NCBI GenBank assembly: GCA_033119305.1
Contig: VSWD01000008.1
Coordinates: 62,068,347-62,132,346 of the forward strand
Length of the DNA stretch: 64,000 nt
Source: Pinctada imbricata
Lineage: Eukaryota
Direction of reading: 5' to 3'
This document shows positions 4,846 through 56,142 of this stretch, in pieces. Under the pieces are notes generated by a model that was not told the DNA's origin, did not search any database, and saw only the letters and a program-made list of their open reading frames with translations. The translations under genes and the position numbers were made by a program. Numbering within the stretch: the stretch's first letter is position 1; each line of letters opens with the position of its first letter.

Positions 4846-5905
4846 AATGTAGGTCAAAGTTCAAGGTCAATGTCATGATCTAAAATGAAAGGTCTTGTAA
4901 CCTTGTAACTCTTTTCATAAAAATCAAATTCAAGGAATTGTGATCCCCAACTTTTGGGCGTTTGTCTTTCAAGAAATGCTTACAGGGCCCCCCAACCCCC
5001 ACCCCTATTCTTAGGTTTTCATAATATATCTAATGTATTATAAAAATTCTATGTATTATAAAAATTCTATGTATTGTAAAAATTCTAAATATCAAAAGAA
5101 AAGGTCAAAACTTTTGTTACCAAGGGTAAGGTCTGGTGAAAAGGGATGTACATGTGAAATAGGAAAGTCCTATCATTTACCATCCAAAAGTTATGGTCAA
5201 GGTTGAAGATTTTAAATGAGTATCAACCTCCAAGGATGAGGTCACTAAGTCGGAATGTCTTGTCACAAGGAATACACATGCGAAATATGAAAGCTGAACC
5301 ACCAACCATTCAAAAGTTATGGTCAATGTTAAATTTTCTGAAAAGTAGGTCACACTCCAAGGTCAAGGTCACAAAGTCATAACTTTTGGTATCCATGGAA
5401 AGGTCTTGTCACAATGAATACAAATGTGAAATATGAAAGCCCTATCACATACCACTCAAAAGTTACAGGTCAAGGTTAAAGTTTCTGAAAAGTAGGTCAA
5501 ACTCCAAGTCAAGGTCACCAGGTCAAAACTTTAGTATCCATGGAAAGGTCTTGTCACAAGGAATAAACATGTGAAATATAAAAGCCCTATCACTTCTCAT
5601 TCAAACGTTATGGACAAGGTTTAAGTTTTTGAAAAGTAGGTCAATCTCCAAGGTCAAGGTCACAAGGTCAAAATTTTTGGTATCCATTGAAAGGTCGTGT
5701 GAGAAGGAATACACATGTGAAATATGAAAGCCCTATCACTTACCATTCAAAAGTTAAAGACAAGGTTAAAGTTTTTTTCTATTTTTTATATCACTTGATA
5801 TAACATGTATGAAGGTTATCAAGAACAAGGTTTAAGTTTTTCTTACTGACTGACAGACACACAGACAGACAGATGGACCAGTTTTAATGTCCCCGCGCTT
5901 TCGTG
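4846..5905 (+). repeat. Array of ~140-bp AAAGTAGGTCA satellite units (~7, some degenerate). It ends with (GACA)n and a variant 3' hairpin gtccccgcgctttcgtgaaaacaggggac. An embedded 19-bp triplication lies at 5040-5095
   Basis: Units read directly (ggtcaaggtca...ggaatacacatgtgaaatatgaaagccctatcac); terminal hairpin stem GTCCCC/GGGGAC. Confidence 0.6.
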
Positions 5906-6142
5906 AAAACAGGGGACAAAAAATATTCATGTAAAATATGAAAGCTATACTGCTTATGGTTTAACTTCAAGAGATACATGTATGGTCAACTTTAAGTTTT
6001 TGAAAAGTATGCAAAATTTCAAGGTCAAGGCCATTAGGTCAAAGGTCAAGGTTTCACATGAAAGGCCGTGTCATAAGAAATCTTCAAGAAGATTAGGAAT
6101 AACAAAGCTGTATCCATTACTGCTGAAAGATATAAACAATAA

Positions 6143-6718
6143 AATCTGTGTTTGTGAAACACGATCCCCCGTTGGCATCTTTGTCAGTAAAACAGATGAA
6201 AAGAAGTTCACATTTGAGGTCCAGGTCACAAGGTCAAATTTAGTATCCTTGGAAACATCTTGCCACATGGAATTCATATGTAAAATATGAAAGCCCTATC
6301 ACTTACCATTCAAAAGTTAAGGCTAAAGTTTAAATTTTCGAAATTAGGTCAAATTCCAAGGTCAACATCACAAGGTCAAAAATTTTGGTATCCATGGAAA
6401 GGTCTTTTAACAAGGAATACAAATGTGAAATATGAAAGCCCTATCACTTACATGTACCAGTACCATTCGAAAGTTATGCCCAAGGTTAAAGTTTTTCAAA
6501 AGTAGGTCAAACTCCTAGGTCAATGTCACAAGGTCAAAAATTTTGGTATCCATGGAAAGATCTTGTCACAAGGAATACAAATGTGAAATAGGAAAGCCCT
6601 TTCACTTACCATTCAAAAGTTATTACCAAGGTTAAAGTTTTTGCAGGACAAACAGACAGACAGACGGAAAGACCAAAAACTATATGCCCCCGAATCTTCG
6701 ATAACAGGGGCATAAAAA
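6143..6718 (+). mobile_element. Family F3 element: 5' tctgtgtttgtgaaacacgatcccccgttggcatctttgtcagt, 4 satellite units, (ACAGAC)n and 3' hairpin atgcccccgaatcttcgataacaggggcat
   Basis: Termini match the other F3 copies; the internal ~142-bp units carry AGGTCA direct repeats. Confidence 0.65.
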
Positions 6719-10181: not shown

Positions 10182-10656
10182 ATGTCTAAGATAAGTGAAC
10201 TGAAAGATCGTCTGAGAGAACAGGAAGCATATTACGCTTCCGCTTGTGTCCAGTTGTCCGCACTCAACATCCAGATGGAACAGCTGGCGAAGAGATTTGA
10301 AAGGGCTGAAGAAAAGGGACAAAAATCGTTCCGCTATTCTTTGCGCATGCGTATGGCTGTCTTGGAAGGAGTACGCAACATGTTCTATGAATTCGCCTCA
10401 CTCAAGGCCAACGTCATCAGCCGATTACGTCACGAAATTCTAATCGAACACGTCTTTTCTGAGGCTAATATGGCCGACTTGAATGACTCCTATCCCATAT
10501 TTGGAAGATACGGTTTGCCTCTCTTCATGGTAGGTAATAACAATGAAGACGAGGAAGAAGACGGAGAATTAGATGAAGAGGAGGAAGATGATTACTTGAC
10601 AGAAACAGACGAAGAATTGCCTAGAGAGCGGAGACGTGGAAATTACTACATCTTGA
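10182..10656 (+). CDS. Candidate first coding exon of an unidentified gene. The product is coiled-coil N-terminal (MSKISELKDRLREQEAYY...) with a poly-acidic stretch (NEDEEEDGELDEEEEDDY); the exon ends at a GA|GTGAGT donor at 10656
   Basis: 176-codon ORF in a locally GC-richer segment. Start context aaagctATGtct. Consensus donors at 10528 (G|GTAGGT) and 10656 (GTGAGT). No homologue recognised. Confidence 0.35.
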
Positions 10657-11618
10657 GTGAGTACTATTTGATTTTATATTCATTGCTCGAACTTGGTGTG
10701 TCAGATATTTAATGTAAAAAAAAATAGATTACAAGCGGAAGAAAGAAAAATCGGATTTCCAGAAAATTGTTAACAACTCAGCCATTATAATGGTTTCACA
10801 CATCTCCATTTCAGATTCTGCTTCACCATGATGTATACCAACAGTAGTAACTACCACACAAGGGAGTATACCATTCTATTTTAACAACAATGTGAGGGCT
10901 TGTCCCGTTGAAATGTTCTGACGGAAGAACCCATCATCCATTCATATTAATGTAAACCCCTTATCCGAGAAAAATGTTCTAGGAATATCCATCGAAAAAG
11001 TTATGCAATAAAAACAGAAAACCTCTTTCGAACGATATAAACAAGGGGGAGCGATGTACAAATCAACACAGGTATCAATTAAAAAAAAATATATATATCA
11101 AAAATTTACCATGGTTAACTTCAGTTTCAGATGCTCTTCTGACAACCATTATCCATCATCCAACGACAAAGGTCCTCAAAGAGAAGAGGAGTGTGCGACC
11201 GGTACCACATAAGAACTGAATGCTGTGTAATGGTTTCATTTTTATAAGACACTTCTTACGTTAAGATTGTGTTATGAGACGACAAGCCCAAGAGTCAACA
11301 TTGAAGTAAAATACATGAATACTGTGAGAATCTTACTAGTTTTGTTTATTCTGATCAAGCGTGAATAATTAAAGTTTTGTGAAAATATTTATTTGTTGAC
11401 AATCTTTTAATGGAAAATATGTCTGGAAGCTATAAATGCATGTACAAAGGTAAGAGGGTGATGCGAAATGAATACACATAAGTTTGTTTGAGAATGTGAT
11501 CGCATTTGCACTTTAAATGTTGGAATACACGAAACATTTGCTATTTCAAATCCTGTAATGAACAACAGCAAGGCAAAGATTTCGAACGAAAATTGTCACG
11601 CTGCTCAAGTATAATTTT

Positions 11619-12157: not shown

Positions 12158-13020
12158 CTAGAGTTTTGCAAAACAAAGAGGCTCTCAAAATTAGCATGAT
12201 GATTATATGTGCGTTTCATATCACACCGGATTAACATCGTTTGAAATTCTTATACCAGATGAAAGTTTAAATCAAGTCTACGGGAAGAGTTATAACATGT
12301 ACCGTTCATTTCCTGGGAAAATGTTGCGAAAGATCACCCTTTATATTCTATTATGCAAATTGGTCAATTTGAAAGTTTTCAGCATAAATTATTTTTATTA
12401 ACAAAAAAATTAAGTTTTAGTTTACAAATATGTCTTCAGGAGATGCAATCTACTATTAATTAATTAAAATTTAACTCTATGCTAAGCTAAGAGAATATTA
12501 ATTCACCTCATGTTTCTGGTTTAGAAAACAACAAAACAAAACAAACATCAAACAGTCAAAAGAAAGAACTTATAAGTTCGCATTCTATATACATGTAATT
12601 TGTCGAAAAGCATATGAACCCCTTGAGTGAATCGTCTAGATCGCCTTTTATATCGCCATGACAAAACTCGAGACATGTGAATATGAAATAGACAATTACC
12701 AAGAAGTATGTGGTACCTAATCCAGCTTACTAGTACTATATCTCTATCTTTCCAGGTTATTTCCACAGGAGCTCGATGCCAACAACCCTCAATGACACCC
12801 CCTTTCCCATCTCTCTCTAGTCAAAGTTATATAAGGAAAAGTAGGGCGGATATTCTTGTGGATCATTGGCATCGAGCTCCTGAGACTATTTCAAATAAAG
12901 AGGAACTTTACAGTTTCTGGATCAGAACGCTCGATAAATACAGGAAGGAGCATAACTGATGGTACATGGTTTGTTGAAATGCGCAAATACATGTATGATG
13001 CACTATAAAATTTGTAATCT

Positions 13021-14270
13021 TTTGGTATCTGTGATAAAACTTTATCTCGGTGTTACTCGTACTTGCAAGATAGATCACAATGTGTGATGTGGAAAGGTGT
13101 TCTATCTGAGCAAAGAGAGGTTTCTATTGGAGTCCCGCAGGGCTCGATTTTAGGGCCTTTGTTTTTCATTTTATTTGTTAACGACTACCCCAATGTCTTC
13201 AACTCTTCCGTTACAATATATGCTGACGACACCACACAAGGTGTCACTGACAAATCATTAGATGTTATAGAATGTAAGTTAAAAGAAGATTTATTAAACA
13301 GTGTGAAATGGATGAGGGATAACAAACTTACAATGAATCTAAAGAAAACACAATGTCTTTTAATTGGAACATCACAGAAATTGTTAAAATGTAGAGAGTT
13401 ATGTGTTAAAGTTGGAGAAACTGTGATAGAAAATGTGAAATGTGCAAAACTTTTAGGTGTTTATATTGATGAATGTCTTACTTGGTCCTATCATACAGAT
13501 GTTTTATACAAGAAATTAAGCCAACAAATAGGTGTTTTAAAGAGGCTAAGTACTTTTATGTCCAAAACGGCATTACTCAGAATGTATAATTCTATAGTTT
13601 TTCCACATTTTAATTATTGTTGTACTGTGTGGCATAATGCAAAGAACAAGACACACATAGAAAAGCTTTTTAGATTGCAGAAGAGGGCAGCAAGAATCAT
13701 TTTAGATATAAAAATACCTAGGTCTGTGTCAACATCTAGTTTGTTTGAACATCTTAAATGGATGCCTCTGTCTGATTACTTTATTTATAGAGAGTCTATT
13801 CTTGTTTTTAAAGTTTTACATGGGCTCACACCTGAATATTTGAATGTTTTTAGCTTTGTAAATGAAATACATACAAGAAACACAAGACAGAGAGCAGTAA
13901 ATCTTATTTATGTCAAGAGAGCAAGAACAGAATATTTTAGAAGATCTTTTATCATTTCGGGTGCATCTTTATGGAACTCTTTGCCTGATTTTATTAGAAA
14001 CTCTACAACATTGTCATCTTTTAAAAACGGGTATCTGAAGCATTACTTTGACTCCTAAATTATTACATGGATATTGATGTTGTTTTACAGGTATGTATTT
14101 TTGTAAATGAACTGTGATATTTAGGTTTTATTTCATTAAGGTGATACAATGGACTTAATTTACTTAATATGTACATATTTTTAAGACAGGACCACATTGT
14201 AAACTAGTTCATTTTATAGCTAGATGTGCTATCCTGTATAAATAAAGGAAACAATTAAAAAAATAATAAT
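13021..14270 (+). mobile_element. 5'-truncated non-LTR retrotransposon (LINE), CR1/L2-like. It carries the RT C-terminal half plus the downstream conserved domain, a 3' UTR and an A-rich tail (aataaaggaaacaattaaaaaaataataat)
   Basis: RT motifs GVPQGSILGPLFF and YADDT. Downstream LRMYNSIVFPHFNYCCTVW...LQKRAARII is typical of CR1/L2/Jockey-group elements. Upstream frames are broken. Confidence 0.7.
13063..14058 (+). CDS. Reverse transcriptase ORF fragment (331 aa) of the LINE above
   Basis: Supplied ORF; the PQG..LGP and YADD boxes are read in the translation. Confidence 0.75.
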   Translation: MQDRSQCVMWKGVLSEQREVSIGVPQGSILGPLFFILFVNDYPNVFNSSVTIYADDTTQGVTDKSLDVIECKLKEDLLNSVKWMRDNKLTMNLKKTQCLLIGTSQKLLKCRELCVKVGETVIENVKCAKLLGVYIDECLTWSYHTDVLYKKLSQQIGVLKRLSTFMSKTALLRMYNSIVFPHFNYCCTVWHNAKNKTHIEKLFRLQKRAARIILDIKIPRSVSTSSLFEHLKWMPLSDYFIYRESILVFKVLHGLTPEYLNVFSFVNEIHTRNTRQRAVNLIYVKRARTEYFRRSFIISGASLWNSLPDFIRNSTTLSSFKNGYLKHYFDS

Positions 14271-17710: not shown

Positions 17711-18531
17711 GTAATCAAAGATGACAGCGCTTACCTCGAAGGCATCATTGTCCCATGACCAGCATCTATACCTACATTGCACAAAGTATTTCCAGATGCA
17801 TCATCCACATAAGTTTGGTTGATAAAAAATTCAAAGAAGGCTGGAAATGAAGATTCTAATTTTACCATACCTGGCAAATCAAGTGTGAAATATTGGTCAG
17901 ATGCAGCATCTGTACAGTGCATTGCAGTAAGCATCCTCAGATACATCACCAACACAAGTTTTTTTTTATTGATCTAGGATTTAAAATAGGCTGGAAATGG
18001 ACCTGTCCCATTTTACTTAACCTGATTGCTCAAGCATGGAATGTGGACAAGTGCAGCATCTGTACCATGAATTGCATTAAGCATCCTCAGATGCATCATC
18101 AATGCAAATTTGGTTGATGTACTCGACTTATAGTAAGACTGGAATGGACCTGCCCCATTTTACCTAACCTGCTCACTCAAGCATGAAATGTAGGTCAGAT
18201 GCAGCCTCTGTACCACGCAGTGTTATAAGCATCCTCAGATGCATCATCCATGCAAGTTTGGTTGATGTAGGACTTATAGTAAGGCTGGAATGGACCTGTC
18301 AACTTTTACCTACCCTGCTCTCTCAAACATGAAATGTAGGTCAGATGCAGCCTCCGTACCATGCTTTGTTGTAAGCACCCTCAGATACATCATTCATGCA
18401 AGTTTGGTTGATGTAGGACCTATAGTTTGGCGGGAATGGACCTGTCCCGTTTTGCTTAACCTATGTTGCAGATGCCGACGACAGGCGATAGCATAAGCCT
18501 CCCTCTACTTTGCGAGGTGAGCTAAAATTAT
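17711..18531 (+). mobile_element. Family F1 element: 5' gtaatcaaagatgacagcgcttacctcg, ~6 copies of a 124-bp satellite (17760-18470), a short GACGAC microsatellite, a 3' hairpin and gagctaaaattat
   Basis: Termini match the element at 241-1684. The satellite is related to satellite B (aaatgtaggtcagatgcagc...catgcaagtttggttgatgtag). Confidence 0.65.
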
Positions 18532-22470: not shown

Positions 22471-24193
22471 TGACATGGCATGGCATGACATGGCAATCAC
22501 ATGACAAAGATCTGATAACAGAAAAGATGTGATGATAAATCCACTATTTGAATATAAATATTCAAATAATATAAAAGTCTATGGACAATTCACAAATGGG
22601 AAATGTGACGAATGGACAGGTGGGCTCTACTGAATGTGGGACTTTTTTTCTGTCTTCTATAATTCTATACACTTAAATGTTGACATACAGTCTGCCAGTT
22701 ATGCTGAATGAGTAAGATATTTCATAATGTATTTTATATAAGAATGTTATAGAACATGCAGTCATTTTTGAAAGAATATACATTTATGAGGAATATGATT
22801 CCGCGAGATTATTTCTTTTTTAGATCTAACATGCTGTATTCAGATCAACTTTATGATCTGTATTCCATGCAAATAATTCTTTTTTTTAATGGTTCGCTAC
22901 TGTACTAACAAGGAGATCAAATAAGCTTTTTCAGTTGAACTTCAGGACAAATCCAAATTTCATACGACTTTTAAAAGAGGAATTTCAGACCCTCTAAATT
23001 CGAACATTTATCAGATAAAAGATCAGTATTTCAAAGCAACAATTTGAAAAAAATAATCTTATACATCATTACTTGGCATACAAATGTATTTCTTGTAAAC
23101 CTTCAATGATGGTACATGTACCATCCAAAACAAGCAGACTTCCAACCTTGAAGCATGAATTATACAACTATTTTGGCATTACCTAAGCCACTGACATTGT
23201 TACCCCTTTTCAAAGCACCAAACAGACTGAGGAAGAAAGGTTTAAAAGTGAAAATGACAATTTTCAAAATCAGAGGACCTACAAAACTCAATTCTAAAAG
23301 CCAAATCCCAGAATACCAGATGAGTATCTAGCACTTCTGCTAAATAATGTTCCAAAGACTTCCTCAAAATATGGCCTAGTTCTGATTATTTGTATTAAGA
23401 CAAATTCATGCTTATGTCTACTAGAAAAGAGAGTAGGTTACAGGTAATGTAAAGGTTAATATAAACTGTAGGGAGGTCAAACAAGGACACAATATCCTGT
23501 CATACAGTAGTACCTTGGCAGATTATTGGTACCGATAATTTCCTTTTGGTTATCTACACCTTGACGGAAAGTTGCCCTGAAAATTGAATTTTCATTAATT
23601 TCAACCAAAAAAAAAAGGATTCATACTTCATGATTTTCAAAAAAATAAAAAGTAACACATGAGACATAATGTTCGCGGTCAAAATGCACAATGTCGTGTT
23701 ATTTTGTTTTGTATGTAAAATGATGCAGCAATGATGTGAATTGGCTTGCACTGAAATTCCATTAAGCTCTTTATTTTGACAGACCTGCAGCCTGTTTCAC
23801 AAAAATTCTCATGAAAAATCTCTGGAATTTTCGTAACTTTTGATTGCTTAGTTTTACTTTATAACTTAAGATTAAGCAAAGTTTTGTTTCTGAATGTATA
23901 TCTAGTATGTAGAAATGATATTCGAAAACATCATACAACATTAATAAACTTTAAAACTTTATTCAATGGAGAAAGTTACGAAAACTCCTGATTTTTTTGT
24001 AAGAACTTTTGTAAAACATGCTGATGCATTGCAACAGTCAAAAGAAGCTAGCAATAAAATCAATTTAGTTCCTAACTGACAATAGTTATGTTAATAGACT
24101 TTTTTTCTAAAACAAATTCTTTTCAACTCAAAATATAATACAGTGTTGTTTAAGATTAAGCACTGCTGGCTGCTTTAAGATTCTTTCTTTATC

Positions 24194-26191
24194 GGGTACC
24201 TGTAAAGTGCGAAACGAAACAAAAACGAAACGAAACGAAACGAAACAAATCGAAACAAATTGAAACGAAACGAAACGAAACGAAACAGATCGAAACGAAA
24301 CAAAACAGATCGAAACGAAACGAAACAGATCGAAACGAAACAAAACAAAACATAAAACTTAAAGAAAATGAGAAAAAGAGGAAAAATCGCCGAAAACGAA
24401 TATTTCAAGACAAGATCTTATTGAAGGGTCAGGGGGTACCACTCTCCTCCTGCCGCCTCCCCCCTCCCCGTGGGGGGAGGGGGTCTTGGGCGGTCAAGAC
24501 AAATGTTTAAACTTTAAAGTGTAAATTGGTGCAATAGTGAAGTTATTTGGGTTATTTCCTTTTTTAAACCTTGAATAAAGCCTGTGTTTGTGAAACACGA
24601 ATGCCCCCGGTGGCATCTTTGTTAGTATAAACGCCATTTTCTGTTAAGTACGTGAAAAGTCAAAGTCAAGGTGACGAGGACAAAACCTTTTGCTAACAAT
24701 GAAATGGTCTTCTCACAAGGAATACACATGTGAAATATGAAAGCCCTATCACTTACTATTCAAAAGTTATGCCCAATGTTAAAGTTTTTGAAAAGTAGGT
24801 CAAAGGTCAAGGTCAGGGGGTTAAAACTTTTGGTATCAATGGAAAGGTCTTGTCACAAGGAATACACATGTGAAATATGAAAGCCCTATCACTTACCATT
24901 CAAAAGTTATGCCCAATGTTAAAGTTTTTGAAAAGTAGGTCAAAGGTCAAGGTCAAGGTCACAAGGTCAAAAATTTTGGTATCAATGGAAAGGTCTTGTC
25001 ACAAGGAATACACATGTGAAATGTGAAAGCCCTAACATTTACCATTCAAAAGTTATGCCCAATGTTAAAGTTTTTAGTTCGGACAAACAGACAGACAGAC
25101 AAACAGACGGACAGGCCAAAAACTATATGCCCCCGAATCTGTGATTCCGAGGGCATAAAAAAGAAATAGACCTGTTTAGATGAAAAACTAAGGTGAGCGG
25201 AGCGAGCCTGAAGTATTTGAAAAATGAATTGAAAATTGTGGCGAGCGAAGCGATCGGGAAAAAATTTTAAGGTATATATAGATGAATTTCGTGGTAATTT
25301 TTAGAATTGAGATTATGTACATGAACGCATAAGAGCAAGATTATTTATATTAAGAGTAATTTTCTAATTTTTTTGGGTTACTGTTACCCTCCCAATCATC
25401 TGTCCCTCCTCTCGCCCCCTTTCCTCTCCTCCCGCCCCCTTTCTCTCCCCTCCCTTTGTCCCTGTCCACCCCCTCATTATTGCCTTCAACCGTTAGTTCT
25501 TGTGGCTGGAGGGTTTTTTAAAGAATCAAAGTTGACGATTAAAACATAATATATACGGTATATAGCACAATTGCATTTTAAAGGAGAGTGATTGGGATGA
25601 ATAACCTCGTCACAGACGGAAAAATATTATTTAGCAGGGAGGAGTCTAGCGCAGAGGAAACGGAACTGTTCCGTTATGTGTATTTGAAAATTTTATCAGA
25701 AAAATGAGAACAATTAAAAACTGGGGGGCAGATTTCGTTTAAAAAGGATAAGATTTTTTCCTGAAATATGCCCCCACCCCGTTTTATGATCTCATTACGG
25801 TGTCATAGCGTGGTTTTCTATCCCCTCCCTTTTATTCCACTTAAATACATGAATGGCATTTGACATTTACTTTTTTTAATTGTCAACTTTGACTCTTTCA
25901 AGAAACCCTCTCTGCACTAGTTACAAATGTAGAACTCTTGGATTAAGGCAATATTACATGCTGCTCTTGTCTTGAAATATTCGTTTTCGGCGATTTTTCC
26001 TCTTTTTCTCATTTTCTTTAAATTTTATGTTTTGTTTCGTTTCGTTTCGATCTGTTTCGTTTCGTTTTGTTTCGTTTCGATCTGTTTCGTTTTGTTTCAA
26101 TTTGTTTCGTTTCGTTTCGATTTGTTTCGTTTCGTTTCGATTTGTTTCGTTTCGTTTCGTTTTTGTTTCGTTTCGCACTTTACAGGGACCC
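24194..26191. mobile_element. Non-autonomous DNA transposon with ~235-bp terminal inverted repeats (GGGTMCCTGTAAAGTGCGAAAC...; each contains a (GAAAC/GTTTC)n array) and a perfect 9-bp TSD, TTCTTTATC. MULE/Merlin-like by TSD length. It carries a nested F3 element
   Basis: TSD at 24185-24193 and 26192-26200. Arm 24194-24425 is the reverse complement of 25965-26191 at ~95% identity. No ORF. Confidence 0.6.
24581..25162 (+). mobile_element. Family F3 element nested inside the long-TIR element
   Basis: 5' cctgtgtttgtgaaacacgaatgcccccggtggcatctttgttagt, 3 units, (ACAGAC)n, 3' atgcccccgaatctgtgattccgagggcat. Confidence 0.65.
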
Positions 26192-26374
26192 TTCTTTATC
26201 ACATTTTTTCTGATACAAAAATTTGGTTTTTATATATATGAGGGCTGATTGATGTGTTGTGAGCCTCGTATTTAAGGATTTGAATCTTATTAGACATTTT
26301 GAATTACTTTTCTACATAATCCCCTTTAGTATCTATGCAGTTTAAGGGCCTCAATACCACTTTTAAAGAACTCC

Positions 26375-26912
26375 TTATCTGGTCAGAAAGCCATCCACTG
26401 CAAGTATGACATCATCATTGGACTGAAAGTGGGTGCCAGAAATAGCTACTTTCAGTTTTGGGAATAGATGAAAGTCTGATGGAGCAAGATCAGGTGAATA
26501 AGGCGGATGCTCAATCAAATTAAAGCCACAATCATGTATGGCAGCCATGGCAGTGACAGACTTGTGAACACGAGCATTGTCCTGATGGAGCAACACACCA
26601 TTAACTGGTGAGCTTTCCGCTTAAGTTTAATATTTTCCCGTAACTGTGTCAGAAGTGACGCATAGTATGTGTCATTGATTGTTTGTCCTTTTTAGAGATA
26701 ATCTATTGGCAGAATACCTTCTGCAACCCAATAATCCAAGGCTCACAACAGATCAGCCCTTGTAGCAAAAGTTTCGAATGAATATTTCCAATACTGAAAC
26801 AGTACAAAGATGCAAATTTAATTCCTACTAGTTTTGACGATTGGAAAAAAACCCCAGACATATCTGTACTGATAAATTGTAAGCTTATGGCAAATATTAT
26901 CAGAGAAATCAT
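26375..26912 (-). pseudogene. Mariner-like (Tc1/mariner, DD34D) transposase remnant with a frameshift and an internal stop
   Basis: LLHQDNARVHKS...HPPYSPDLAPSDFHLFPKLK signature. An upstream frame gives INDTYYASLLTQLRENIKLKRKAHQL (stop and frameshift near 26600). A further frame gives ..LICCEPWIIGLQ. Confidence 0.7.
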
Positions 26913-30819: not shown

Positions 30820-33800
30820 CTCCCCCCTCCCTCTAAGTTACTTTGACCTTAGGCCAAAATGCAAAATGATGTGAAACCTTTGAGTCATGGGCAACATCAT
30901 ACTAAAACATGAAAGTAATTCATTACATTGTTTGAGGTAAAGCCCAAACATGATTGGCATATATAATTTCATTATAAGCATATTTAAAGAAATTGACTTT
31001 GGTCACATGACCTTGGATATAGGTGATCTGAAATCTACACTCACTGACGAAGATTAAGTACCCGAAACATGCATGTCTGGTCCATGCTGAAAACTTATCT
31101 GTTTTTAAATGATGCTATTGAATTTGAAGACGTTTAGCATTGTATGGATCATGAGCATCAAAAAACTGAATTAGTGATTGGATACACAGTTCAAAATATA
31201 AAGCCTAAACGTTATTAGCATAGACAATTTCAGCCTGGACATGCTTAGCATATACAATTTCATTACCAAAGTAAGAAGCTACCTTAACCATGTGACCTTG
31301 GGACAATGTGATAAGAAACATTCAGTCCTTAGAAATAACATACTAAAATATGAAAACAATTGTAAGAAGGGTTCAGGAGATATAGCCCAGACAATATTAG
31401 TACGTACAATTTCATTAAAAAGAACTAAATGATCTTGACCTTGGGCACATGACCTTGGGTCAAGATGATAAGAAACCCTCCAATCCTGAGCAACAGCATA
31501 CTATAGTATAAGAGTGATCCAGTATACGATTCCACAGATATAGCCCAGACTCAATAGCATTTACAATTTCATTAAAAAATGTAATACTTGACCTTAGTCA
31601 TATGACCTTGGATCAAGAAGGTGTGAAACCTTTGGGTCATCAGCACCATCATACTAAAATATGACGTGATCTGATCACGGTTCAAAAGATTAAGCCTGGA
31701 CATAATACATGTAACAAATACAATTTCATTTAAAATATACTAATTGACCTTGACTTTGGTCACATGACCTTGAGTCAATGTGATGTGAAACCTTTACGTG
31801 ATAAGCAACAACATACTAAAATATGACGGTGATCTGATAAATAGTTCAAAGAGATACAGCCCCAATGGGATAGCATATACAATTTCATTTAAATGTACTT
31901 AGTAACTTTGACCTTAATCAAATGACCATGGGTCCAGGTGAAACCTTTTGGTCATGACTAAATACATTCTTAAACTTGAAAGCAATCCAGTATGCAGTCC
32001 AAGGGATAAAGCCTAAACAAGAATGTATCTACAATTTCATTAAAAATGTAGTAAGTGACCTTGGCCTTGGGTCAAGGTGATGTAAAACCTTCCGGTCATA
32101 AGCAAAAACATACTTAAATATGAAAGTGATCCGGCAAACGGTTCAAGAGATATAGCCCGGACAAGAATGTATGCACAATATCATTAAAAATAGCAATCCA
32201 AGGAATGCTCGTGTCGCCTGCGAAGCGGCTTGATTATTATTCTAGAAAGTGGATCAAAATTATTGGTAACAGTAGAAAAGTTTTGTCAAATGAAATTCAT
32301 TTGAAATATCAGACCTCATAATTACAAATTAAAAGATATGGTCATTCTCAAATTTTCAGAAAATAGTGTCAATCATCTAGGCAAAAGTCACTATGTAAAA
32401 ATTTGTAACGAAAAGGTCTCATCATAAGAAATATCAAAGACCTATCACTTACCAATTAAAAAATATACACAACCTTAATTTCTTAGAAAAGAAGGTCAAA
32501 CAGTTAGGTCAAGGTCAAACATTATGGTATGTGTAGAAATGCATTGTTACGAGGAAAATACATGTGAAATAGCAAAGCCCTATCACCTACCAATCAAAAG
32601 ATATAGCCAATTTGAATTCTCTTGAAAAGTAGGTCAAATATCTAGGTCAAGATCACAAGGTTAAATATTATGGTCTGTGTAGAAAGGTCATGTCACAAGG
32701 AATACACATGTGAAATATCAAAGCCCTATCACTTACATGTACCAATCAAAAGATATATACAATCTTAATACTTTTGAAAAGTGGGTCAAATATGTAGGTC
32801 AAGGTAAATAGGTCAGAAATTATGGTATGTGTAGAAAGGCGTTGTTACAAGGAATAAACATGTAAAATATCAAAGCCCTATCACTTACCATTAAAAAGAT
32901 ATAGTGAATCTTATCTTTTTTTCAAAAGTAGGTCAAATATCTAGGTCAAGGTCACAAGGTCAAAAATTATGGTGTGTGTAGAAAGGTCTTGCCACAAGGA
33001 TTGCATGTGTGAAATATCAAAGTCCTAACCCTTACCAATCAAAAGATATATCAATTCTTAACTTTTTTGAAAAGTAGGTCAAATATGTAGGTCAAGGTCA
33101 CTAGGTCAAAAGTTATGGCATGTGTAGAAAGGTCTTGTCACAAGGAATACACATGTGAAATATCAAAGCCCTATCACTTACCTTTCAAAAGTTATGGGCT
33201 GTGACACCCAAAGTGTGACAGACAGATGGACTGACTGACGGACGGACGGACAACGGACAAAGTGATCCCTAAGTGTCGCTATGCTTCGCAGGAGACACAA
33301 AAATGCACTAAGTGACCTTGACCTTGGTCACATGACCTTGGGTCAAGGTGATGTGAAACCTACGGGTCATAAGCAACAACATGCTAAAATATGAAAGTGA
33401 TCGGGCCAACGTTTCCAGAGATATAGCTTGACAGGAATGTATTCATAATTTCATTAAAAATGCACTAAGTGACCTTGACCTTGGTCACATGACCTTGGGT
33501 CATGGTGATGTGAAACATTTGGGTCATAAGCAACAACATACTAAAATATGAAAGTGATCGGGCGAACGGTTCAAGGGATATGGCACAGACTGGAAAGTAT
33601 GCACAGTTTCATTAAAAATGCACTAAGTGACCTTGACCTTGGTCACATGACCTTGGGTCAAGGTGATGTGAAACCTTCGGGTCATAAGCAACAACATACT
33701 AAAATATGAAAGTGATCCGGCATTCGTTCAAGAGATATAGCCCGGACAGGAATGTATACATAATTTCATTAAAAATGCACTAAGTGACCTTGACCTTGGT

Positions 33801-34150
33801 CACATGACCTTGGGTCAAGGTGATGTGAAACCTTCAGGTCATAAGCAACAACATACTAAAATATGAAAGTGATCCGGCAAATGGTTCAAGAGATATAGCC
33901 CGGACAGGAATGTATGCATAATTTCATTAAAAATGCACGAAGTGACCTTGAACTTGGTCACATGACCTTGGGTCAAGGTGATGTGAAACCTTCGGGTCAT
34001 AAGCAACAACATACTAAAATATGAAAGTGATCGGGCTAACGGTTCAGGCGATATAGCCCGGACACGATGTGTGACAGACGGACAGACAGACAGACAGACG
34101 GACGACGAAGGCAAAACCAATATGTCTCCTCTCTGTTGGGGGGGAGACAT
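30820..34150 (+). repeat. Family F5 array: a ~158-bp unit (gcactaagtgaccttgaccttggtcacatgaccttgggtcaaggtgatgtgaaacc...). There are ~9 diverged copies, then a nested F2 insertion, then 5 near-identical copies. It ends in (GACA/GACGGACA)n plus the hairpin atgtctcctctctgttgggggggagacat
   Basis: Periodicity and the terminal 8-bp-stem hairpin (ATGTCTCC/GGAGACAT) read directly. Confidence 0.75.
32186..33302 (+). mobile_element. Complete family F2 element (~8 x 120-bp units) inserted into the F5 array between aaaaat and gcactaag, with at most a 1-bp duplication
   Basis: F2 5' and 3' termini are present. Flanks are tcattaaaaat | element | tgcactaagtgacc. Uninterrupted F5 units read cattaaaaatgcactaagtgacc. 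Confidence 0.7.
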
Positions 34151-34479: not shown

Positions 34480-34605
34480 CTGAAATACAGAAAATTTTCT
34501 CAGTTAACTAAGCGATATTGCTCACAGAAAGGTAATGAACTAAATACTAGTATTGTGAAAGAAGAAAACACTATGGTGTGGTTGTGAAACACTGCATAAT
34601 AAAGC

Positions 34606-36100
34606 CAGTGTTTGTGAAACACAAATGCCCCCGGTGGCATCTTTGTTAGTATGAACACTAATTTCTGTTAAGTACATGTATGTGAGGTCACTGGGTTAAA
34701 AGGTCAAAGGTCAAGGTCACGAGGTCAAAAATTTTGGTATCAATATAAAGGTCTTGTCACAAGGAATACACATGTGAAATATGAAAGCCCTATCACTTCC
34801 CATTCAAAAGTTATGCCCAATGTTAAAGTTTTTGAAAAGTAGGTCAAAGTCCAAGGTCAAGGTCACAAGGTCAAAAATTTCGGTTTCCATGGAAAGGTCT
34901 TGTCACAAGGAATACACATGTGAAATATCAAAGCCCTATCACTTTCCATTCAAAAGTTATGGTCAAGGTTAAAGTTTTTAATAAGTAGGTCAAAGGTCAA
35001 GGTCAAGGTCACGAGGTCAAAAATTTTGGTATCAATGGAAAGGACTTGTCACAAGGAATACACATGTGAAATATGAAAGCCCTATCACTTCCCATCCAAA
35101 AGTTATGTCCAATGTTAAAGTTTTTGAAAAGTAGGTCAAAGGTCAAGGTCAAGGTCACGAAGTGAAAAATTTTGGTATCAATGGAAAGGTCTTGTCACAA
35201 GGAATACACATGTGAAATATGAAAGCCCTATCACTTCCCATCCAAAAGTTATGCCCAATGTTAAAGTTTTTGAAAAGTAGGTCAAAGGTCAAGGTCAAGG
35301 TCACGAGGTCAAAAATTTTGGTATCAATGGAAAGGTCTTGTCACAAGGAATACACATGTGAAATATGAAAGCCCTATCACTTCCCATTCAAAAGTTATGT
35401 CCAATGTTAAAGTTTTTGAAAAAGTAGGTCAAAGGTCAAGGTCACGAGGTCAAAAATTTTGGTATCAATGGAAAGGTCTTGTCACAAGGAATACACATGT
35501 GAAATATGAAAGCCCTATCACTTCCCATTCAAAAGTTATGCCCAATGTTAAAGTTTCTGAAAAGTAGGTCAAAGGTCAAGGTCAAGGTCACGAGGTCAAA
35601 AATTTTGGTATCAATGGAAAGGTCTTGTCACAAGGAATACACATGTGAAATATGAAAGCCCTATCATTTCCCATTCAAAAGTTATGCCCAATGTTAAAGT
35701 TTTTGAAAAGTAGGTCAAAGGTCAAGGTCAAGGTCACGAGGTCAAAAATTTTGAAATCAATGGAAAGGTCTTATCACAAGGAATACACATGTGAAATATG
35801 AAAGCCCTATCACTTCCCATCCAAAAAATATGCCCAATGTTAAAGTTTTTGAAAAGTAGGTCAAAGGTCAAGGTCAAGGTCACGAGGTCAAAAATTTTGG
35901 TATCAATGGAAAGGTCTTGTCACAAGGAATACCCATGTGAAATATGAAAGCCCTATCACTTCCCATTCAAAAGTTATGTCCAATGTTAAAGTTTTTCGGA
36001 CAAACAGACAGACAAACAGACAAACAGATAAACAGACAAACAGACGGACAGGCCAAAAACTATATGCCCCCGAATCTTTGATTCCGGGGGCATAAAAAAA
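34606..36100 (+). mobile_element. Family F3 element: ~10 x 142-bp units, a long (ACAGAC)n and the 3' hairpin atgcccccgaatctttgattccgggggcat
   Basis: Termini and units read directly. A partial duplicate of the 5' terminus (gttgtgaaacac) lies 25 bp upstream. Confidence 0.7.
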
Positions 36101-36944: not shown

Positions 36945-38645
36945 CCCTCGCACTGCCCCCTCTAGGCTGTATAAAAAGATTTTGACCTTTTCCAATCTGT
37001 GACCTTGACCTTTGGCCTTTTAAAAATCAATAGGGTTCTTCCTCTTTTTAAAAGCTATCATTGTATGAAGTTTGGTTAAGGTCCAATCAAAACTGCGTCC
37101 TCTAGGCTGTATACAAGGATTTTGATCTTTTCCAATCTGTGACCTTGACCTTTGACCTAAAAAAGTCAATAGGGTACTTCCTCTTATAAACTATCAAGAG
37201 TATGAAGTTTGGTTAAGACCCAATCAAACCTGTACCCTCTAGGCTGTATACAGGGATTTTGACCTTTTCCAACCTGTGACCTTTGATCTTTGACCTAAAA
37301 AAATCAATAGGGTACTTCCTCTTATAAACTATCAAGTGTATGAAGTTTGGTTAAGACCCAATCAAACCTGCACCCTCTAGGCTGTATACAGAGATTTTGA
37401 CCTTTTCCAACCTGTGACCTTTGATCTTTGAGCTTGAAAATCAATAAGTTTCTTCCTCTTATAAACTATCAAGAGTATGAAGTTTGGTTAAGACCCAATC
37501 AAACCTGCACCCTCTAGGCTGTATACAGGGATTTTGACCTTTTCCAACCTGTGACCTTTGATCTTTGACCTAAAAAAATCAATAGGGTACTTCCTCTTAT
37601 AAACTATCAAGAGTATGAAGTTTGGTTAAGACCCAATCAAACCTGCACCCTCTAGGCTGTATACAGAGATTTTGACCTTTTCCAACCTGTGACCTTTGAT
37701 CTTTGAGCTTGAAATCAATAAGTTTCTTCCTCTTATCATAAACTATCAGTGTATGAAGTTTGGTTAAGGCCCAATCAAAACTGCACCCTCTAGACTGTAT
37801 CCAAGGATTTTGACCTTTTCCAATCTGTGACCATGACCTTTGACCTAAAAAAATCAATAGGGTACTTCCTCTTATAAACTATCAAGAGTATGAAGTTTGG
37901 TTAAGACCCAATCAAACCTGCACCCTCTAGGCTGTATACAGGGATTTTGACCTTTTCCAACCTGTGACCTTTGATCTTTGACCTAAAAAAATCAATAGGG
38001 TACTTCCTCTTATAAACTATCAAGAGTATGAAGTTTGGTTAAGACCCAATCAAACCTGCACCCTCTAGGCTGTATACAGGGATTTTGACCTTTTCCAACC
38101 TGTGACCTTTGATCTTTGACCTAAAAAAATCAATAGGGTACTTCCTCTTATAGAACTATCAAGTGTATGAAGTTTGGTTAAGACCCAATCAAACCTGCAC
38201 CCTCTAGGCTGTATACAGGGATTTTGACCTTTTCCAACATGTGACCTTTGATCTTTGACCTTGAAAATCAATAGGGTTCTTCCTCTTGTCATAAGCTATT
38301 AGTGTATGAAGTTTGGTTAAGGCCCAATCAAAACTGCACCCTCTAGACTGTATCCAAGGATTTTGACCTTTTCCAATCTGTGACCTTGACCTTTGACCTA
38401 AAAAAGTCAATAGGGTACTTCCTCTTATAAACTATCAAGAGTATGAAGTTTGGTTAAGACCCAATCAAACCTGCACCCTCTAGGCTGTATACAGGGATTT
38501 TGACCTTTTCCAATCTGTGACCTTGACCTTTGACCTACGACCTTGAAAATCAGTAGGGTTCTTCTTCTTGTCATAAGCTATCAGTGTATGAATTTTGGTT
38601 AAGATCCAATCAAAACTGCACCCTCTAGGCTGTATACAAGTATTT
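36945..38645 (-). repeat. Family F4 array: a ~120-bp unit, ~14 copies (ctctaggctgtatacagggattttgaccttttccaacctgtgacctttgatctttgacc...). It is the reverse-strand counterpart of the AGGTCA satellites, ending next to an imperfect palindrome atccccctgcaactatgttgcaaggggata
   Basis: Units contain tgaccttgacctttgacc, the reverse complement of ggtcaaaggtcaaggtca. Confidence 0.75.
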
Positions 38646-38699
38646 TGTGACACACACACTCACTTGCACACGAACGAGGGCGTTACTATATCCCCCTGC

Positions 38700-43317: not shown

Positions 43318-44190
43318 ACAAAAATAGCAATTCAAGGAATGCTTGTGTCACCTGCGAAGTGGCAATTTCTTCTTTTTTTTTTTTTAAAGTAGGTCAAATA
43401 TCTATTTCAAGGTCATTAGGTAAAAAATTATGGCATGTGTAGAAAGGTCTTGTCACAAAGCATACACATGTGAAATATCAAAGCCTTATCATTTACCAAT
43501 CTAAAGACATAGCTAATCTTAGTTTTTCAAGAAGTAAGCCAAATATCTAGGTCAAGGTCACTAGGTCAAACATTATGGTAAGTGTAGAAAGACCTTGTTA
43601 CAAGGCATACACATGTGAAATATCAAGGCCTTATCCCTTACCATTCAAAAGATAAAACCAATCTTAGCTTTTTTTAAAAGTAGGTCAAATATCTAGGTCA
43701 AGGTCACTAAGTCCAAAAAAAAATTGTAGGTGTAGAAAGGTCTTGTCACAAGGAATACACATGTGAAATATCAAAGCCCTATTCCTTACCATTCAAAAGA
43801 TAAAACCAATCTTAGCTTTTTTGAAAAGTAGGTCAAATATCTAGGTCAAGGTCACTAATTCCAAAAAAAAAAAAAAAATGGTAGGTGTAGAAAGGTCTTG
43901 TCACAAGGAATACACATGTGAAATATCAAAGCCCTATCACTTACCAATTAAAAGATATACAAGTAGTCAATCTTAGCTTTTTTGAAAAGTAGGTCAAGGT
44001 CACTAGGTCAAAAATGTTGGTTTGTGTAGAAATGTCTTGTCACAAGGAATAAGCATGTGAAATATCAAAGCCCTATCACTTACCAATCTAAAGTTATGGG
44101 GTGTGACACCCAAAGTGTGACAACAGACGGACAACGGACAATGAGATCCCTAAGTGTTGCTATGATTTGCAGGCTACACAAAAAGACAGC
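43318..44190 (+). mobile_element. Family F2 element (~6 units; poly-A slippage inside the units)
   Basis: 5' aaaaatagcaattcaaggaatgcttgtgtcacctgcgaagtggc; 3' aaagttatggggtgtgacacccaaagtgtgacaacagacggacaa...gcaggctacacaaaaa. Confidence 0.65.
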
Positions 44191-46584: not shown

Positions 46585-47600
46585 AGTCCCCTACCGGCGG
46601 CATATATTTATGTCCTGCAACTCTGGCTATGAATTACTCTTCAATTAAACATATACATGTATGAGTTTAAATTAAACTTACTGTCTGTGCAGCTCAGTTC
46701 TGAGGTTTTATCTGCTTTATCGATTCGAAAAAGAGGTCAAGTGTGACGAAAGTTGAACTTGTTCTGTAACTATCCAAGACTAAGCTGAGTATCAAATTTC
46801 ACCTGAATATCTCTGTTTGTTGCAGAAAAAAGTCTGGAAAACTGACAAAAACTGAATTTTCCAAGTCATAAAGGGGCATAACTCCTCGAAAAATAGGTCA
46901 AACGTGACATAAGTCGAACTTGCTCTGTAACTATCCTAGACCAAGCTGTGTATCAAATTTCATCTGAATATCTTCATCCGTTGCAGAAAAAAAGTACAGA
47001 AAACTGACAAAAACTTAATTTTCCAAGTTATAGAGGGGCATAACTCCTTGTAAAATAGATCAAGCCTGACAAAATTCAAACTTGCTCTGTAAGTATCCAA
47101 GACCAAGCTGTGTATCAAATTTCATCTGAATATCTCCATTCGTTGCAGGAAAAAGTCCGGAAAACAGACAAAAAGTGAATTTTCCAAGTCATCAAGGGGC
47201 ATAACTCCTCGAAAAATGGGTCAAACGTGATGAAGGTTAAACTTGCTCTGTAACTATCCAAGACAAAGCTGTGTATCAAATTTCATCTGAATATTTCCAT
47301 TCGTTGCAAAAAAAAGTCCGGAAAACTGACAAAAACTGGATTTTCCAAGTCATCAAGGGGCATAACTCCTCGAAAAATGGGTCAAGCGTGACGAAAGTCG
47401 AACTTGCTCTGTAACTATCCAAGACCAAGCTGTGTATCAAATTTCATCTGAATATCTCTATCCATTGCAGAAAAAAGTCCGGAAAACTGATATTCGGACA
47501 GACGGACAGACGGAGGGACAGACGGACGGACAGACAGACAGACGGACAGACAGACCGAGAGGAAACTAAGAGTCCCCTTCGGCGTTGCCGGTAGGGGACT
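46585..47600 (+). mobile_element. Family F6 element: 14-bp terminal inverted repeats AGTCCCCTACCGGC, an internal ~160-bp satellite x6 (46720-47490), (GACAGACGGACA)n, and the 3' hairpin agtccccttcggcgttgccggtaggggact
   Basis: 5' tagtcccctaccggcggcat (46587) against the reverse complement of 3' ...ccggtaggggacta (47586). Satellite units read directly. Confidence 0.6.
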
Positions 47601-49860: not shown

Positions 49861-49914
49861 TGTGTTTGTGAAAAACAAATGCCCCCGTCGGCATCTATGT
49901 CAAATTGTATAATG

Positions 49915-49946
<32 letters not shown>

Positions 49947-50409
49947 ATATTTTGGTATCAATGGAAAGGTCTTGTCACAATGAATACACATGTGAAATAT
50001 CAAAGCCCTATCCCTTACCATTCAAAAGTTATGGCCAAGGTTAAAGTTTTTCAAAAGTAGGTCAAACTCTAAGGTCAAGGTAACAAATTTTGGTATCCAT
50101 GGAAAAATCTTGTCACAAGGAATACACATGTGAAATATCAAAGCCCTATCCCTTACCATTCAAAAGCTATAGCCTGCAAGGTTAAAGTTTTTCAAAAGTA
50201 GGTCAAACTCTAAGGTCAAGGTAACAAGGTTAAAAATTTTGGTATCCATGGAAAGATCTTGTCACAAGGAATAAACATGTGAAATATCAAAGCCCTATCT
50301 CTTAAATTTGTACCATTCAAAAGCTATGGCCAAGGTTAAAGTTTTTGCAGACAAACAGACAGGACAAATACTATATGTCCCCGAATCTTTGATTACCGGG
50401 GCATAAAAA
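49861..50409 (+). mobile_element. Family F3 element (3 units)
   Basis: 5' tgtgtttgtgaaaaacaaatgcccccgtcggcatc; 3' (ACAGAC)n...atatgtccccgaatctttgattaccggggcat. Confidence 0.65.
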
Positions 50410-51634: not shown

Positions 51635-51963
51635 CAGTCAATGGCACATAATACATGTAAAACTGCCCTTGCTTGAATCGCAAGAAGGATTTCAGTTTCC
51701 AAAATGAGCTGCAGACTGTGGTGGATTTTTTATATGCAACATACATCATACTTTATGTGATAATTGACCCTTCCGATTGCGGAGAAAAAATGCAAAATTT
51801 TGTGTCGTCACAATACTTTTACCTCGGACAAACAAGCTTCGAACCTCGGTCAAACATCAAAAGTGCATTGTGACGTCATGGAATTTCTCAAATTTTTCCC
51901 GCGTTCGGAAGGGTCAATTGATTCTGCATGGAATGAAAATAAAAGTCTCAAAGTATCATATAC

Positions 51964-56109: not shown

Positions 56110-56142
<33 letters not shown>

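Follow-up and report, generated by a model that had tools for sequence, protein, structure and literature searches.

A non-autonomous foldback-type DNA transposon insertion, probably of the Mutator superfamily, carrying a nested HINE-type element in Pinctada imbricata

Foldback-type elements and the Mutator superfamily

[quoted passage not shown] An active animal MULE, Muta1 of Aedes aegypti, belongs to the Phantom clade and has been described as a “type 2 foldback” element (PMC5225508, PMC5499845). The 145-bp TIR of Muta1 consists of a terminal motif, GGGTCTACCC, which is an imperfect palindrome, and nine 12-bp repeats; the TSDs are 8–9 bp long (PMC5225508, PMC5499845). The subterminal repeats of Muta1 enhance transposase binding, cleavage, and excision (PMC5499845). 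In non-autonomous derivatives of Muta1, the number of TIR repeats is variable, and Muta1NA1 has three and seven of them at its two ends (PMC5225508, PMC5499845).

Tm1 of Meloidogyne, Tetris of Drosophila virilis, and Drosophila FB have composite TIRs with tandem repeats and unequal arms, 9-bp (8–10-bp) TSDs, and mostly non-coding copies (PMC3169594, PMC4079207), all of which are shared by the element described here. [quoted passage not shown] Most foldback elements of the Tm1 and Tetris sort have been assigned to Mutator (PMC3169594, PMC4079207). The foldback architecture itself arose in more than one superfamily, with Galileo belonging to the P superfamily (PMC3573991, PMC3169594).

Extent of the element and structure of its arms

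The sequence analyzed (the window) is a 64-kb stretch of DNA, in which a 1,998-bp transposon insertion occupies positions 24194–26191. The terminal sequences of the element are GGGTACCTGTAAAGTGCGAAAC and GGGTCCCTGTAAAGTGCGAAAC, and a search of the window with the 22-mer of the termini, with up to three mismatches allowed, returned just these two matches, the chance expectation being 0. An exact 9-bp direct duplication, TTCTTTATC, adjoins the element at 24185–24193 and 26192–26200, in agreement with the original prediction. The duplicated sequence directly touches GGG... on the left and ...CCC on the right. Immediately outside the arms, the flanking bases C and T do not pair, so that the inverted repeat ends there. 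For a fixed offset, two 9-mers would match by chance with a probability of ~9e-6, and at the offset of the element an identical 9-mer was found at one of 61,900 window positions, which is the TTCTTTATC pair.

An inverted segmental duplication or a replication-error palindrome, flanked by an identical 9-mer by chance, would be a non-transposon origin of the same structure, and the recovery of a single copy from the window and from the contig collections scanned could be taken to favor it. The coincidence of the exact 9-mer with both ends of the inverted repeat (p ~9e-6), the sharp ends of the arms at GGG/CCC with unrelated sequences on both flanks, and a composite TIR anatomy known from an established class of transposons all argue against such an origin, which we regard as highly improbable. 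We conclude that the locus is a genuine insertion of a transposon, the type of which has already been well described.

No second copy with the termini of the element was found in the window, either by the tip search with up to three mismatches or by BLAST with the whole element. The 22-nt tip CCTGTAAAGTGCGAAACGAAAC had 0 exact matches among contigs from metagenomes, prokaryotic genomes, and viruses; a 26-nt inner-TIR string likewise had 0 in metagenome contigs, and an Rfam search over the whole window returned no match. Before the insertion, the empty site would have read GATTCTTTCTTTATCACATTTTTTCTG, with a single TTCTTTATC. The flanks of the insertion are not repeated elsewhere in the window, so that a check for a paralogous empty site gave nothing; a neighboring mariner remnant could not be used as such a site, because it ends 48 bp from the insertion.

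In a gapped local alignment, the left arm (24194–24415, 222 nt) pairs with the reverse complement of the right arm (25965–26191, 227 nt) with 205 matches, 12 mismatches, and 15 gap columns. The arms are thus reverse-complementary, as had been predicted, and are ~225 rather than 235 nt long; their identity is 94.5% over aligned columns and 88% with gaps counted, and the predicted value of ~95% is true only when gaps are ignored. When folded, the arms form a hairpin of −232.7 kcal/mol (z = −37). The difference in their length is due to two indels of 5 and 10 nt, which fit a change in the number of repeats, since both are pentamer multiples. The repeat arrays of the arms are dynamic, as these repeat-unit indels demonstrate.

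Each arm is composite, and consists of a 17-nt tip (GGGTMCCTGTAAAGTGC), ~29 degenerate CGAAA pentamers, and a 64-nt unique inner part. The left tip, GGGTACCTGTAAAGTGC (24194–24210, plus strand), starts with the heptamer GGGTACC, which contains the perfect palindrome GGTACC, while the right tip, GGGTCCCTGTAAAGTGC when read inward (26175–26191, minus strand), has GGGTCCC, which is palindromic around the central T (GGG-T-CCC); the motif is short, and its resemblance to that of Muta1 may be due to chance. The left subterminal array (24211–24351, plus strand) was detected by TRF with periods 5 and 20 over 24210–24351, and the right one (26029–26174, minus strand, reading GTTTC on the plus strand) with periods 5, 20, and 30 over 26029–26175. 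There are 16–17 CGAAA units per arm, and their interruption by CAAAT, CAGAT, or CAAAA leads to the 20- and 30-nt periods. Parsing into pentamers grouped them, in each arm, as higher-order units of 15–25 nt. Pentanucleotide arrays are therefore present in both arms, as anticipated, and are degenerate rather than clean. The unique inner parts lie at 24352–24415 in the left TIR (plus strand) and at 25965–26028 in the right TIR (minus strand), and differ by one mismatch in the gapped alignment of the arms.

Two other views of the arrays were considered. An ordinary microsatellite was ruled out by the regular higher-order structure. An ISRE/IRF-like regulatory array, suggested by the (GAAAC)n reading, was rejected, as the spacing does not appear to fit. 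The presence of a microsatellite in TIRs had initially been thought uncommon, a view that does not hold: repeats at this position are typical of the foldback class, and subterminal tandem repeats are found in 10 of the 12 long-TIR MULE families of Aedes (PMC5225508).

Interior of the element and the nested HINE copy

The interior of the element consists of two segments separated by a nested repeat. The first segment (24416–24562) contains a G/C-rich palindrome (24453–24464/24472–24483), the presence of which had been noted previously, and an internal recurrence of the terminal heptamer GGGTACC at 24434–24440. The second segment (25163–25964) is non-coding and has no other copy in the window by BLAST; it contains a C-rich 20-bp repeat at 25406–25454 and an inverted-repeat pair at 25478–25544/25874–25953.

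Open reading frames in the element reach at most 89 aa, and the longest ones are translated repeat arrays. A Pfam search with its open reading frames of at least 70 aa, and with a six-frame translation of the interior, returned no match, and no remnant of a transposase. Likewise, none of 5.8 billion proteins matched 16 selected stop-to-stop frames (TIR-derived and unique-interior, concatenated) at E ≤ 0.001, and exact look-ups of junction, host, and satellite open reading frames found no record. The element is without protein-coding capacity, and the earlier claim that it has no ORF stands in this sense. MULEs are mobilized by a DDE transposase of their own type (Pfam MULE or Transposase_mut), often with a FLYWCH or SWIM finger, which autonomous copies with matching TIRs carry. 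In the entire 64-kb window, no MULE transposase domain was found by Pfam.

The ~600-bp segment at 24563–25162, on the minus strand, was delimited by BLAST, TRF, and comparison with the HINE plan (PMC7492417), HINEs being non-autonomous Helentron-like elements. Read on the minus strand, it comprises ATGCCCTCGGAATC ... GATTCGGGGGCAT (the 5' subTIR with its complementary IR), followed by a (TGTC)n microsatellite, three copies of a 140-bp repeat, the 3' subTIR CGGGGGCAT, and the palindrome GTGTTTCACAAACAC. TRF reported repeats within it at 24646–25075 (period 140) and 25082–25114. When the whole element was compared with the window by BLAST, this segment was the sole part repeated elsewhere, with at least four further copies (6138–6718, 34598–36099, 49852–50409, and 55640–56320) that have both boundaries in common. 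No flanking duplication was evident around the copies in the window. The segment, which had been predicted to be a later-inserted satellite element, is an independent repeat family and a separate HINE-type element, since it has both the structural plan and dispersed copies without TSDs; it may have entered after the host element transposed, or have been carried along as cargo.

This nested element, and not its host, resembles the non-autonomous Helentrons of bivalves (Cg_HINE, pearl, DTC84, and MgE) in having an IR complementary to the 5' subTIR, a microsatellite of the GTCY type, a few tandem repeats of ~140–170 bp, a palindrome after the 3' subTIR, and no TSD. Bivalve HINEs often insert into other transposable elements (PMC7492417). 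None of six short strings from the subTIR/IR and palindrome regions of the copy was found as such in the supplementary files for C. gigas Cg_HINE, where the sole 8-mer match was to an unrelated sequence; because the strings are missing from this supplement, the nested HINE is of a different family or species from Cg_HINE. String searches of the literature with its satellite monomer returned nothing. A satellite-carrying HINE nested in a DNA transposon illustrates how short satellite arrays can be dispersed.

Superfamily assignment and genomic setting

The features of the element correspond to those of MULEs. Its exact TTCTTTATC duplication, seen in one copy, falls within the 8–10 bp range of MULE TSDs and has their typical length of 9 bp, and its arms, at 222 and 227 nt, are in the range of long MULE TIRs, which are often >100 bp. 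The element also has the organization of a type 2 foldback, in which the 17-nt tip precedes an array of ~29 pentamers (periods 5, 20, and 30) and the arms fold into a hairpin. The most likely reading, to which we assign a probability of roughly 0.65, is that a non-autonomous DNA transposon of the foldback type (type 2), belonging to the Mutator superfamily and similar to Muta/Phantom MULEs, has inserted here. The initial view of the locus as a non-autonomous TIR transposon with a 9-bp TSD is supported, and the MULE assignment may be refined to the foldback type, as the short palindromic terminal motif, the subterminal tandem repeats, and the unique inner TIR part appear to match it.

Muta1 is the closest example, with TIRs of >100 bp in which many short subterminal repeats lie next to a palindromic terminal motif, and an 8–9-bp TSD. 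Its motif GGGTCTACCC has GGGT (four identical bases) in common with the tips of our element and, as far as such short tips allow, palindromy, with no similarity beyond. Non-autonomous Muta derivatives have heterogeneous interiors and unequal numbers of repeats in their arms, and the two arms of our element likewise differ. There are also clear differences: the palindromic tip is 7 nt long here and 10 nt in Muta1; the repeat unit is a CGAAA pentamer with 15–25-nt higher-order units, whereas Muta1 has 12-bp repeats with 3–4-bp linkers; the 64-nt unique inner TIR part is extra in our element; and the hosts differ. Compared to the other foldback elements, the end motifs of Tm1 are asymmetric and 7 bp long and its repeats measure 14 bp, in contrast to the symmetric ends and pentamer-based repeats found here, while the repeats of Tetris are 220 bp long; the sequences of Tm1, Tetris, and Drosophila FB are unrelated to that of our element. 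Rehavkus, a MULE-related group in Repbase, shares the 9-bp TSD, TIRs of 26–412 bp, and an associated minisatellite (PMC6446971), but this minisatellite is located before the 3' TIR rather than within both TIRs, and the known elements are autonomous, 5–18 kb long, and come from insects and annelids.

The assignment to Mutator over Merlin is our best guess, drawn from the structure of one copy together with literature priors. Elements of the Merlin superfamily have 24–462-bp TIRs with a conserved terminal 5'-GG and TSDs of 8 or 9 bp, and some Merlin families have internal or subterminal tandem repeats (PMC8101967). Our element displays all three of the former features, so that a non-autonomous Merlin element, mobilized by an IS1595/IS1016-like DDE transposase, is a live alternative that was already named in the original prediction. 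However, Merlin is not defined by a palindromic tip with an extended repeat array next to it, and Muta1, a MULE characterized by experiment, has the GGGT start, the palindromic terminal motif, and the long array of subterminal repeats together (PMC5499845), as does our element. Moreover, Merlin is scarce in bivalves, with three curated families versus 39 of MULEs, and in automated libraries is almost confined to cephalopods (PMC10294476). A Pfam search of the 64-kb window found no IS1595-type domain (DDE_Tnp_IS1595), the kind of transposase expected of a Merlin partner. We therefore consider a Merlin origin unlikely.

The polyphyletic nature of foldback architecture (PMC3169594, PMC3573991) also makes conceivable an element of another or undescribed superfamily (P/Galileo-like, hAT-like, or unknown), with a real TSD of 8 bp and an asymmetric terminal base. 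An 8-bp TSD (TTCTTTAT or TCTTTATC) is formally possible if the element is taken as 24193–26191 or 24194–26192, and in Tm1 the inverted repeat is indeed bordered by asymmetric bases (PMC3169594). Such a delimitation needs an extra unpaired terminal base, and 9 bp around a perfect GGG...CCC boundary is the most parsimonious solution. hAT elements have short TIRs, typically starting with YAG, and 8-bp TSDs; P-type TIRs start with CA, with a TSD of 8 bp in the P element, and 7-bp TSDs are produced by Galileo-type elements. With a TSD of 9 bp and TIRs of ~225 nt, the element departs from the 7-bp TSD of Galileo-like members of the P superfamily, and from the 8-bp TSD and short TIRs of hAT. Membership in another superfamily appears less probable still than a Merlin origin.

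If the element is a Muta-like MULE, its mobilization may be pictured by analogy with Muta1. The short palindromic terminal motif (GGGTMCC...) would be recognized by a putative DDE transposase of the MULE type, the gene for which would lie at another genomic locus. This enzyme would load cooperatively onto the ~140-nt CGAAA-based subterminal array of each arm, the repeats serving as candidate binding sites. The element would then be excised through double-strand breaks and re-inserted at a staggered 9-bp cut, repair of which would lead to the TTCTTTATC duplication. Other copies probably exist, and the termini can be used as seeds for a genome-wide search for them and for the autonomous partner. 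A bolder reading, in which the element is the first to be recognized from a foldback/MULE lineage of molluscs, or from an unclassified TIR superfamily, with a (CGAAA)n transposase-loading array, perhaps still mobile and perhaps ferrying HINE/satellite cargo, seems to us doubtful, somewhat more so than the Merlin alternative.

The element is probably intronic, because it is located between exons of a SPEF1-like gene. A search with the peptide of a SPEF1-like exon returned no candidate host. The arms, as inverted repeats of 225 nt spaced 1.5 kb apart within what is probably an intron, are able to pair as hairpins. Their transcription, should it occur, could yield small RNAs, and they could also promote rearrangements. 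The value of these findings, which will not surprise transposon specialists, is chiefly in annotation, as both the termini and the architecture of a foldback-type DNA transposon become available for an invertebrate genome with little annotation.

The repeat landscape of the window points to a host that is probably a bivalve. The window also contains a LINE reverse transcriptase. Two ENA contigs (ERZ26168041) have this reverse transcriptase alone in common with the window, at ~70% nucleotide identity, the satellites of the window being missing from them. The closest protein matches of the reverse transcriptase are at most 73% identical to it.

Ends and arms of the foldback element

In a gapped local alignment, the left end of the 1,998-bp foldback element at window positions 24194-26191 (24194-24415, 222 nt) paired with the reverse complement of its right end (25965-26191, 227 nt); 205 positions match, 12 do not, and there is one indel of 5 nt and one of 10 nt. 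Identity between the arms was 94.5% over aligned bases and 88% when gaps were counted. The 22-nt termini, GGGT(A/C)CCTGTAAAGTGCGAAAC, were found in the window at these two sites only (up to three mismatches allowed; zero sites expected by chance). When the arms were folded as DNA with a short loop between them, a free energy of -232.7 kcal/mol was obtained, compared with -75 +/- 4 kcal/mol for shuffled sequences (z = -37).

The 9-mer TTCTTTATC is present at 24185-24193 and again at 26192-26200, directly abutting the GGG... and ...CCC ends of the element. Given the base composition of the window, two 9-mers at a set spacing would be identical with p ~9e-6, and among 61,900 positions scanned at this offset, an identical 9-mer was seen only in the TTCTTTATC pair. 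Because an exact 9-bp duplication adjoins sharply ending 225-nt inverted repeats, 24194-26191 is a real cut-and-paste DNA transposon insertion. A palindrome unrelated to transposition is very unlikely, since the inverted repeat carries the 9-mer at its exact boundary on either side. A foldback element of P/Galileo-like or hAT-like type is also unlikely: it would call for a target-site duplication (TSD) of 7-8 bp, with one asymmetric terminal base of the element counted in the 9-bp repeat. The flanks of the element have no second occurrence within the window, which therefore contains no paralogous empty site.

Each arm consists of a unique 17-nt tip (GGGTMCCTGTAAAGTGC), ~140 nt of degenerate pentamers (16-17 CGAAA units, with CAAAT, CAGAT, or CAAAA as punctuation), and a unique 64-nt inner part, in which one position is unlike between the arms. 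In addition to the pentamers, TRF gives periods of 20 and 30 for these arrays, because the CGAAA units are punctuated by the other pentamers. The left and right arms differ mainly in the number of CGAAA units between punctuation pentamers, and both inter-arm indels are multiples of 5, which points to repeat-number change via slippage or unequal exchange, not random decay. The original prediction of inverted arms, a perfect 9-bp TSD, and arms prone to instability agrees with these data, with the two indels (5 and 10 nt) as support for the last point. The predicted arm length of 235 nt has to be corrected to ~225 nt, the ~95% identity holds only if indels are ignored, and the pentanucleotide arrays, found by TRF in both arms as proposed, are degenerate, with punctuated CGAAA units.

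The first 7 nt of the tips are palindromic (GGTACC within GGGTACC; GGGTCCC as GGG-T-CCC). The heptamer GGGTACC recurs at 24434-24440, 20 nt inward of the inner border of the left terminal inverted repeat (TIR), and of the four GGGTMCC sites across the 64-kb window, three fall inside the element. The internal copy may mark an ancestral end or an alternative one, or have arisen by chance.

Relationship to foldback MULEs

Foldback-type elements are defined by TIRs in which subterminal tandem repeats follow a terminal motif and lead into a unique part, and the element belongs, as one more member, to an already known kind of transposon. Several such systems have been described. In Meloidogyne, Tm1 carries 14-bp tandem repeats in composite TIRs, its TSDs are mostly 9 bp, the TIRs within a single element are on average 93% identical, and its transposase is of Phantom/Mutator type (PMC3169594). 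Tetris, from D. virilis, makes TSDs of 8-10 bp and was placed in Mutator because of its structure (PMC4079207). The 145-bp TIR of Muta1, an active Aedes Mutator-like element (MULE), is made up of an imperfect palindrome, GGGTCTACCC, and nine 12-bp repeats, whose number varies in non-autonomous derivatives (PMC5225508). Experimentally, binding of Muta1 transposase needs the terminal palindrome, the subterminal repeats increase binding and excision frequency, and donor cleavage in vitro depends on these repeats; excision proceeds through a hairpin on flanking DNA (PMC5499845). The suggestion that repeats inside TIRs are uncommon was thus mistaken, since the foldback class is defined by such repeats, which have an important function in Muta1.

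The element and Muta1 have in common a GGGT start, a long subterminal array, a 9-bp TSD, and unequal arms, and the element's short palindromic tips may correspond to the terminal palindrome of Muta1 or resemble it by chance; an array built from pentamers departs only slightly from subterminal repeats of the usual 9-15 bp. These features lead us to read 24194-26191 as a probable non-autonomous type 2 foldback MULE (probability roughly 0.65). The MULE/Merlin-like reading put forward earlier was reasonable, and the TIR architecture sharpens it to a foldback-type MULE. Membership in the Merlin superfamily is unlikely: the element does have the 8-9-bp TSD, TIR of 24-462 bp, and terminal GG of Merlin (PMC8101967), but MULEs were found in every mollusc genome examined and bivalves have few Merlin families (3 curated, against 39 for MULEs; PMC10294476), and the arrangement of tip plus array fits Muta1. 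The element is still less likely to represent a new foldback lineage of molluscs or an unclassified superfamily, possibly still active and carrying HINE cargo. By analogy with Muta1, the putative foldback MULE would be mobilised by a transposase encoded elsewhere, and its CGAAA-based array may serve as a multi-site transposase loading platform. In collections without the host genome, the 22-nt terminus had no match among metagenome, prokaryotic-genome, and viral contigs, and an inner-TIR string had none among metagenome contigs.

Interior and nested HINE unit

A BLAST search of the element against the window returned repeats only for element positions ~381-969. Alignment of five copies with their flanks placed the boundaries of this nested unit at ~24563 and ~25162, in line with the satellite element originally noted in the interior. 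On the minus strand, it consists of a 5' subTIR (ATGCCCTCGGAATC) with a complementary inverted repeat (GATTCGGGGGCAT), a (TGTC)n microsatellite, three copies of a 140-bp repeat, a 3' subTIR (CGGGGGCAT), and a palindrome (GTGTTTCACAAACAC), which is exactly the published plan of HINEs, non-autonomous Helentrons known in bivalves as Cg_HINE, pearl, DTC84, and MgE (PMC7492417). Short strings from the flanking (subTIR/inverted-repeat and palindrome) regions of this HINE copy were absent from the C. gigas Cg_HINE supplementary files. HINEs lack a TSD and often insert into other transposable elements (PMC7492417), and it is plausible that the unit was inserted later than the foldback element.

The remaining interior (24416-24562 and 25163-25964) is non-coding. 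As had been predicted, the element has no substantial ORF: none exceeds 89 aa, and the longest are translated pentamer arrays. Pfam gave no match for element ORFs of at least 70 aa, nor, with the threshold relaxed to E <= 10, for the interior translated in all six frames, and a concatenated multi-frame query of selected element reading frames had no homologue in the protein database. The expected G/C palindrome was seen at 24453-24464/24472-24483, and a C-rich 20-bp repeat lies at 25406-25454. A second inverted-repeat pair, 25478-25544/25874-25953, has arms of 34 nt (85% complementarity) and 23 nt (78%) with TA on either outer side, and could be a nested Tc1/mariner-type MITE of ~470 bp or a part of the element's own middle domain.

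Genomic context

The window is AT-rich (~35% GC) and densely filled with HINE-like arrays of 124-161-bp units (320-1593, 5257-5774, 17879-18462, 32428-34064, 34699-35996, 36952-38647, 43378-44093, 46725-47555, 49914-50346, and 55732-56254). At least five arrays belong to the family of the nested unit, and (ACAG/CGGACAGA)n microsatellites follow several of the window's arrays, which indicates multiple HINE-like families. This repeat landscape suggests that the host is an invertebrate animal, probably a bivalve mollusc.

In the window, Pfam matched part of a LINE reverse transcriptase, a CH_2 domain of SPEF1 type, and, weakly, a mariner-type DDE fragment just right of the foldback element. Using human SPEF1 as the tblastn query, we located minus-strand SPEF1-like exons at 52057-51965, 44379-44260, and 34481-34341, and C-terminal-like exons at 20007-19918 and 19765-19679, with repeat-rich introns of roughly 8-14 kb. 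Since these exons map on either side of the foldback element, it is probably intronic. Further copies at 40627-40481, 60640-60560, 61109-61029, and 11714-11652 (C-terminal coiled-coil exons and an exon 2 bearing a stop codon) suggest exon or gene duplication, or pseudo-exons. In protein collections without the host genome, exact look-ups of window ORFs returned no record; the SPEF1-like peptide had no match in collections likewise lacking that genome.

The LINE fragment (13018-14055, plus strand; RVT_1, E = 4.6e-10) has best database relatives of at most 73% protein identity. Two ENA contigs (ERZ26168041, 3-4x coverage; 71-72% identity in the reverse transcriptase) share nothing else with the window, satellites included, and look like eukaryotic host DNA within a metagenome assembly. 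A 176-aa ATG ORF at 10182-10712 (plus strand), whose N-terminal half resembles a coiled coil and whose tail is acidic (D/E-rich), had no Pfam match and no exact record in the protein collection, and could be an exon from a host gene that lacks annotation. A mariner-like element of ~530 bp with an internal deletion (26240-26768, minus strand) lies 48 bp beyond the right end of the foldback element. Its TIR, GAGGGCTGATTGATGTGTTGTGAGCC, is at 26240-26265, an inverted counterpart, AGGGCTGATCTGTTGTGAGCC, is found near 26766-26746, and it retains a C-terminal transposase fragment at 26378-26620 (...HPPYSPDLAPSDFHLFPKLK...; DDE_3 E = 0.0034, below the family cut-off). A hairpin-like MITE of 472 bp, unrelated in sequence to the foldback element, lies at 51165-51636, ~330 bp downstream of the first SPEF1-like exon; its ~220-nt arms are 88-95% complementary with ~48 nt between them, and the direct repeat GTCAA is present on both flanks (51160-51164 and 51637-51641).
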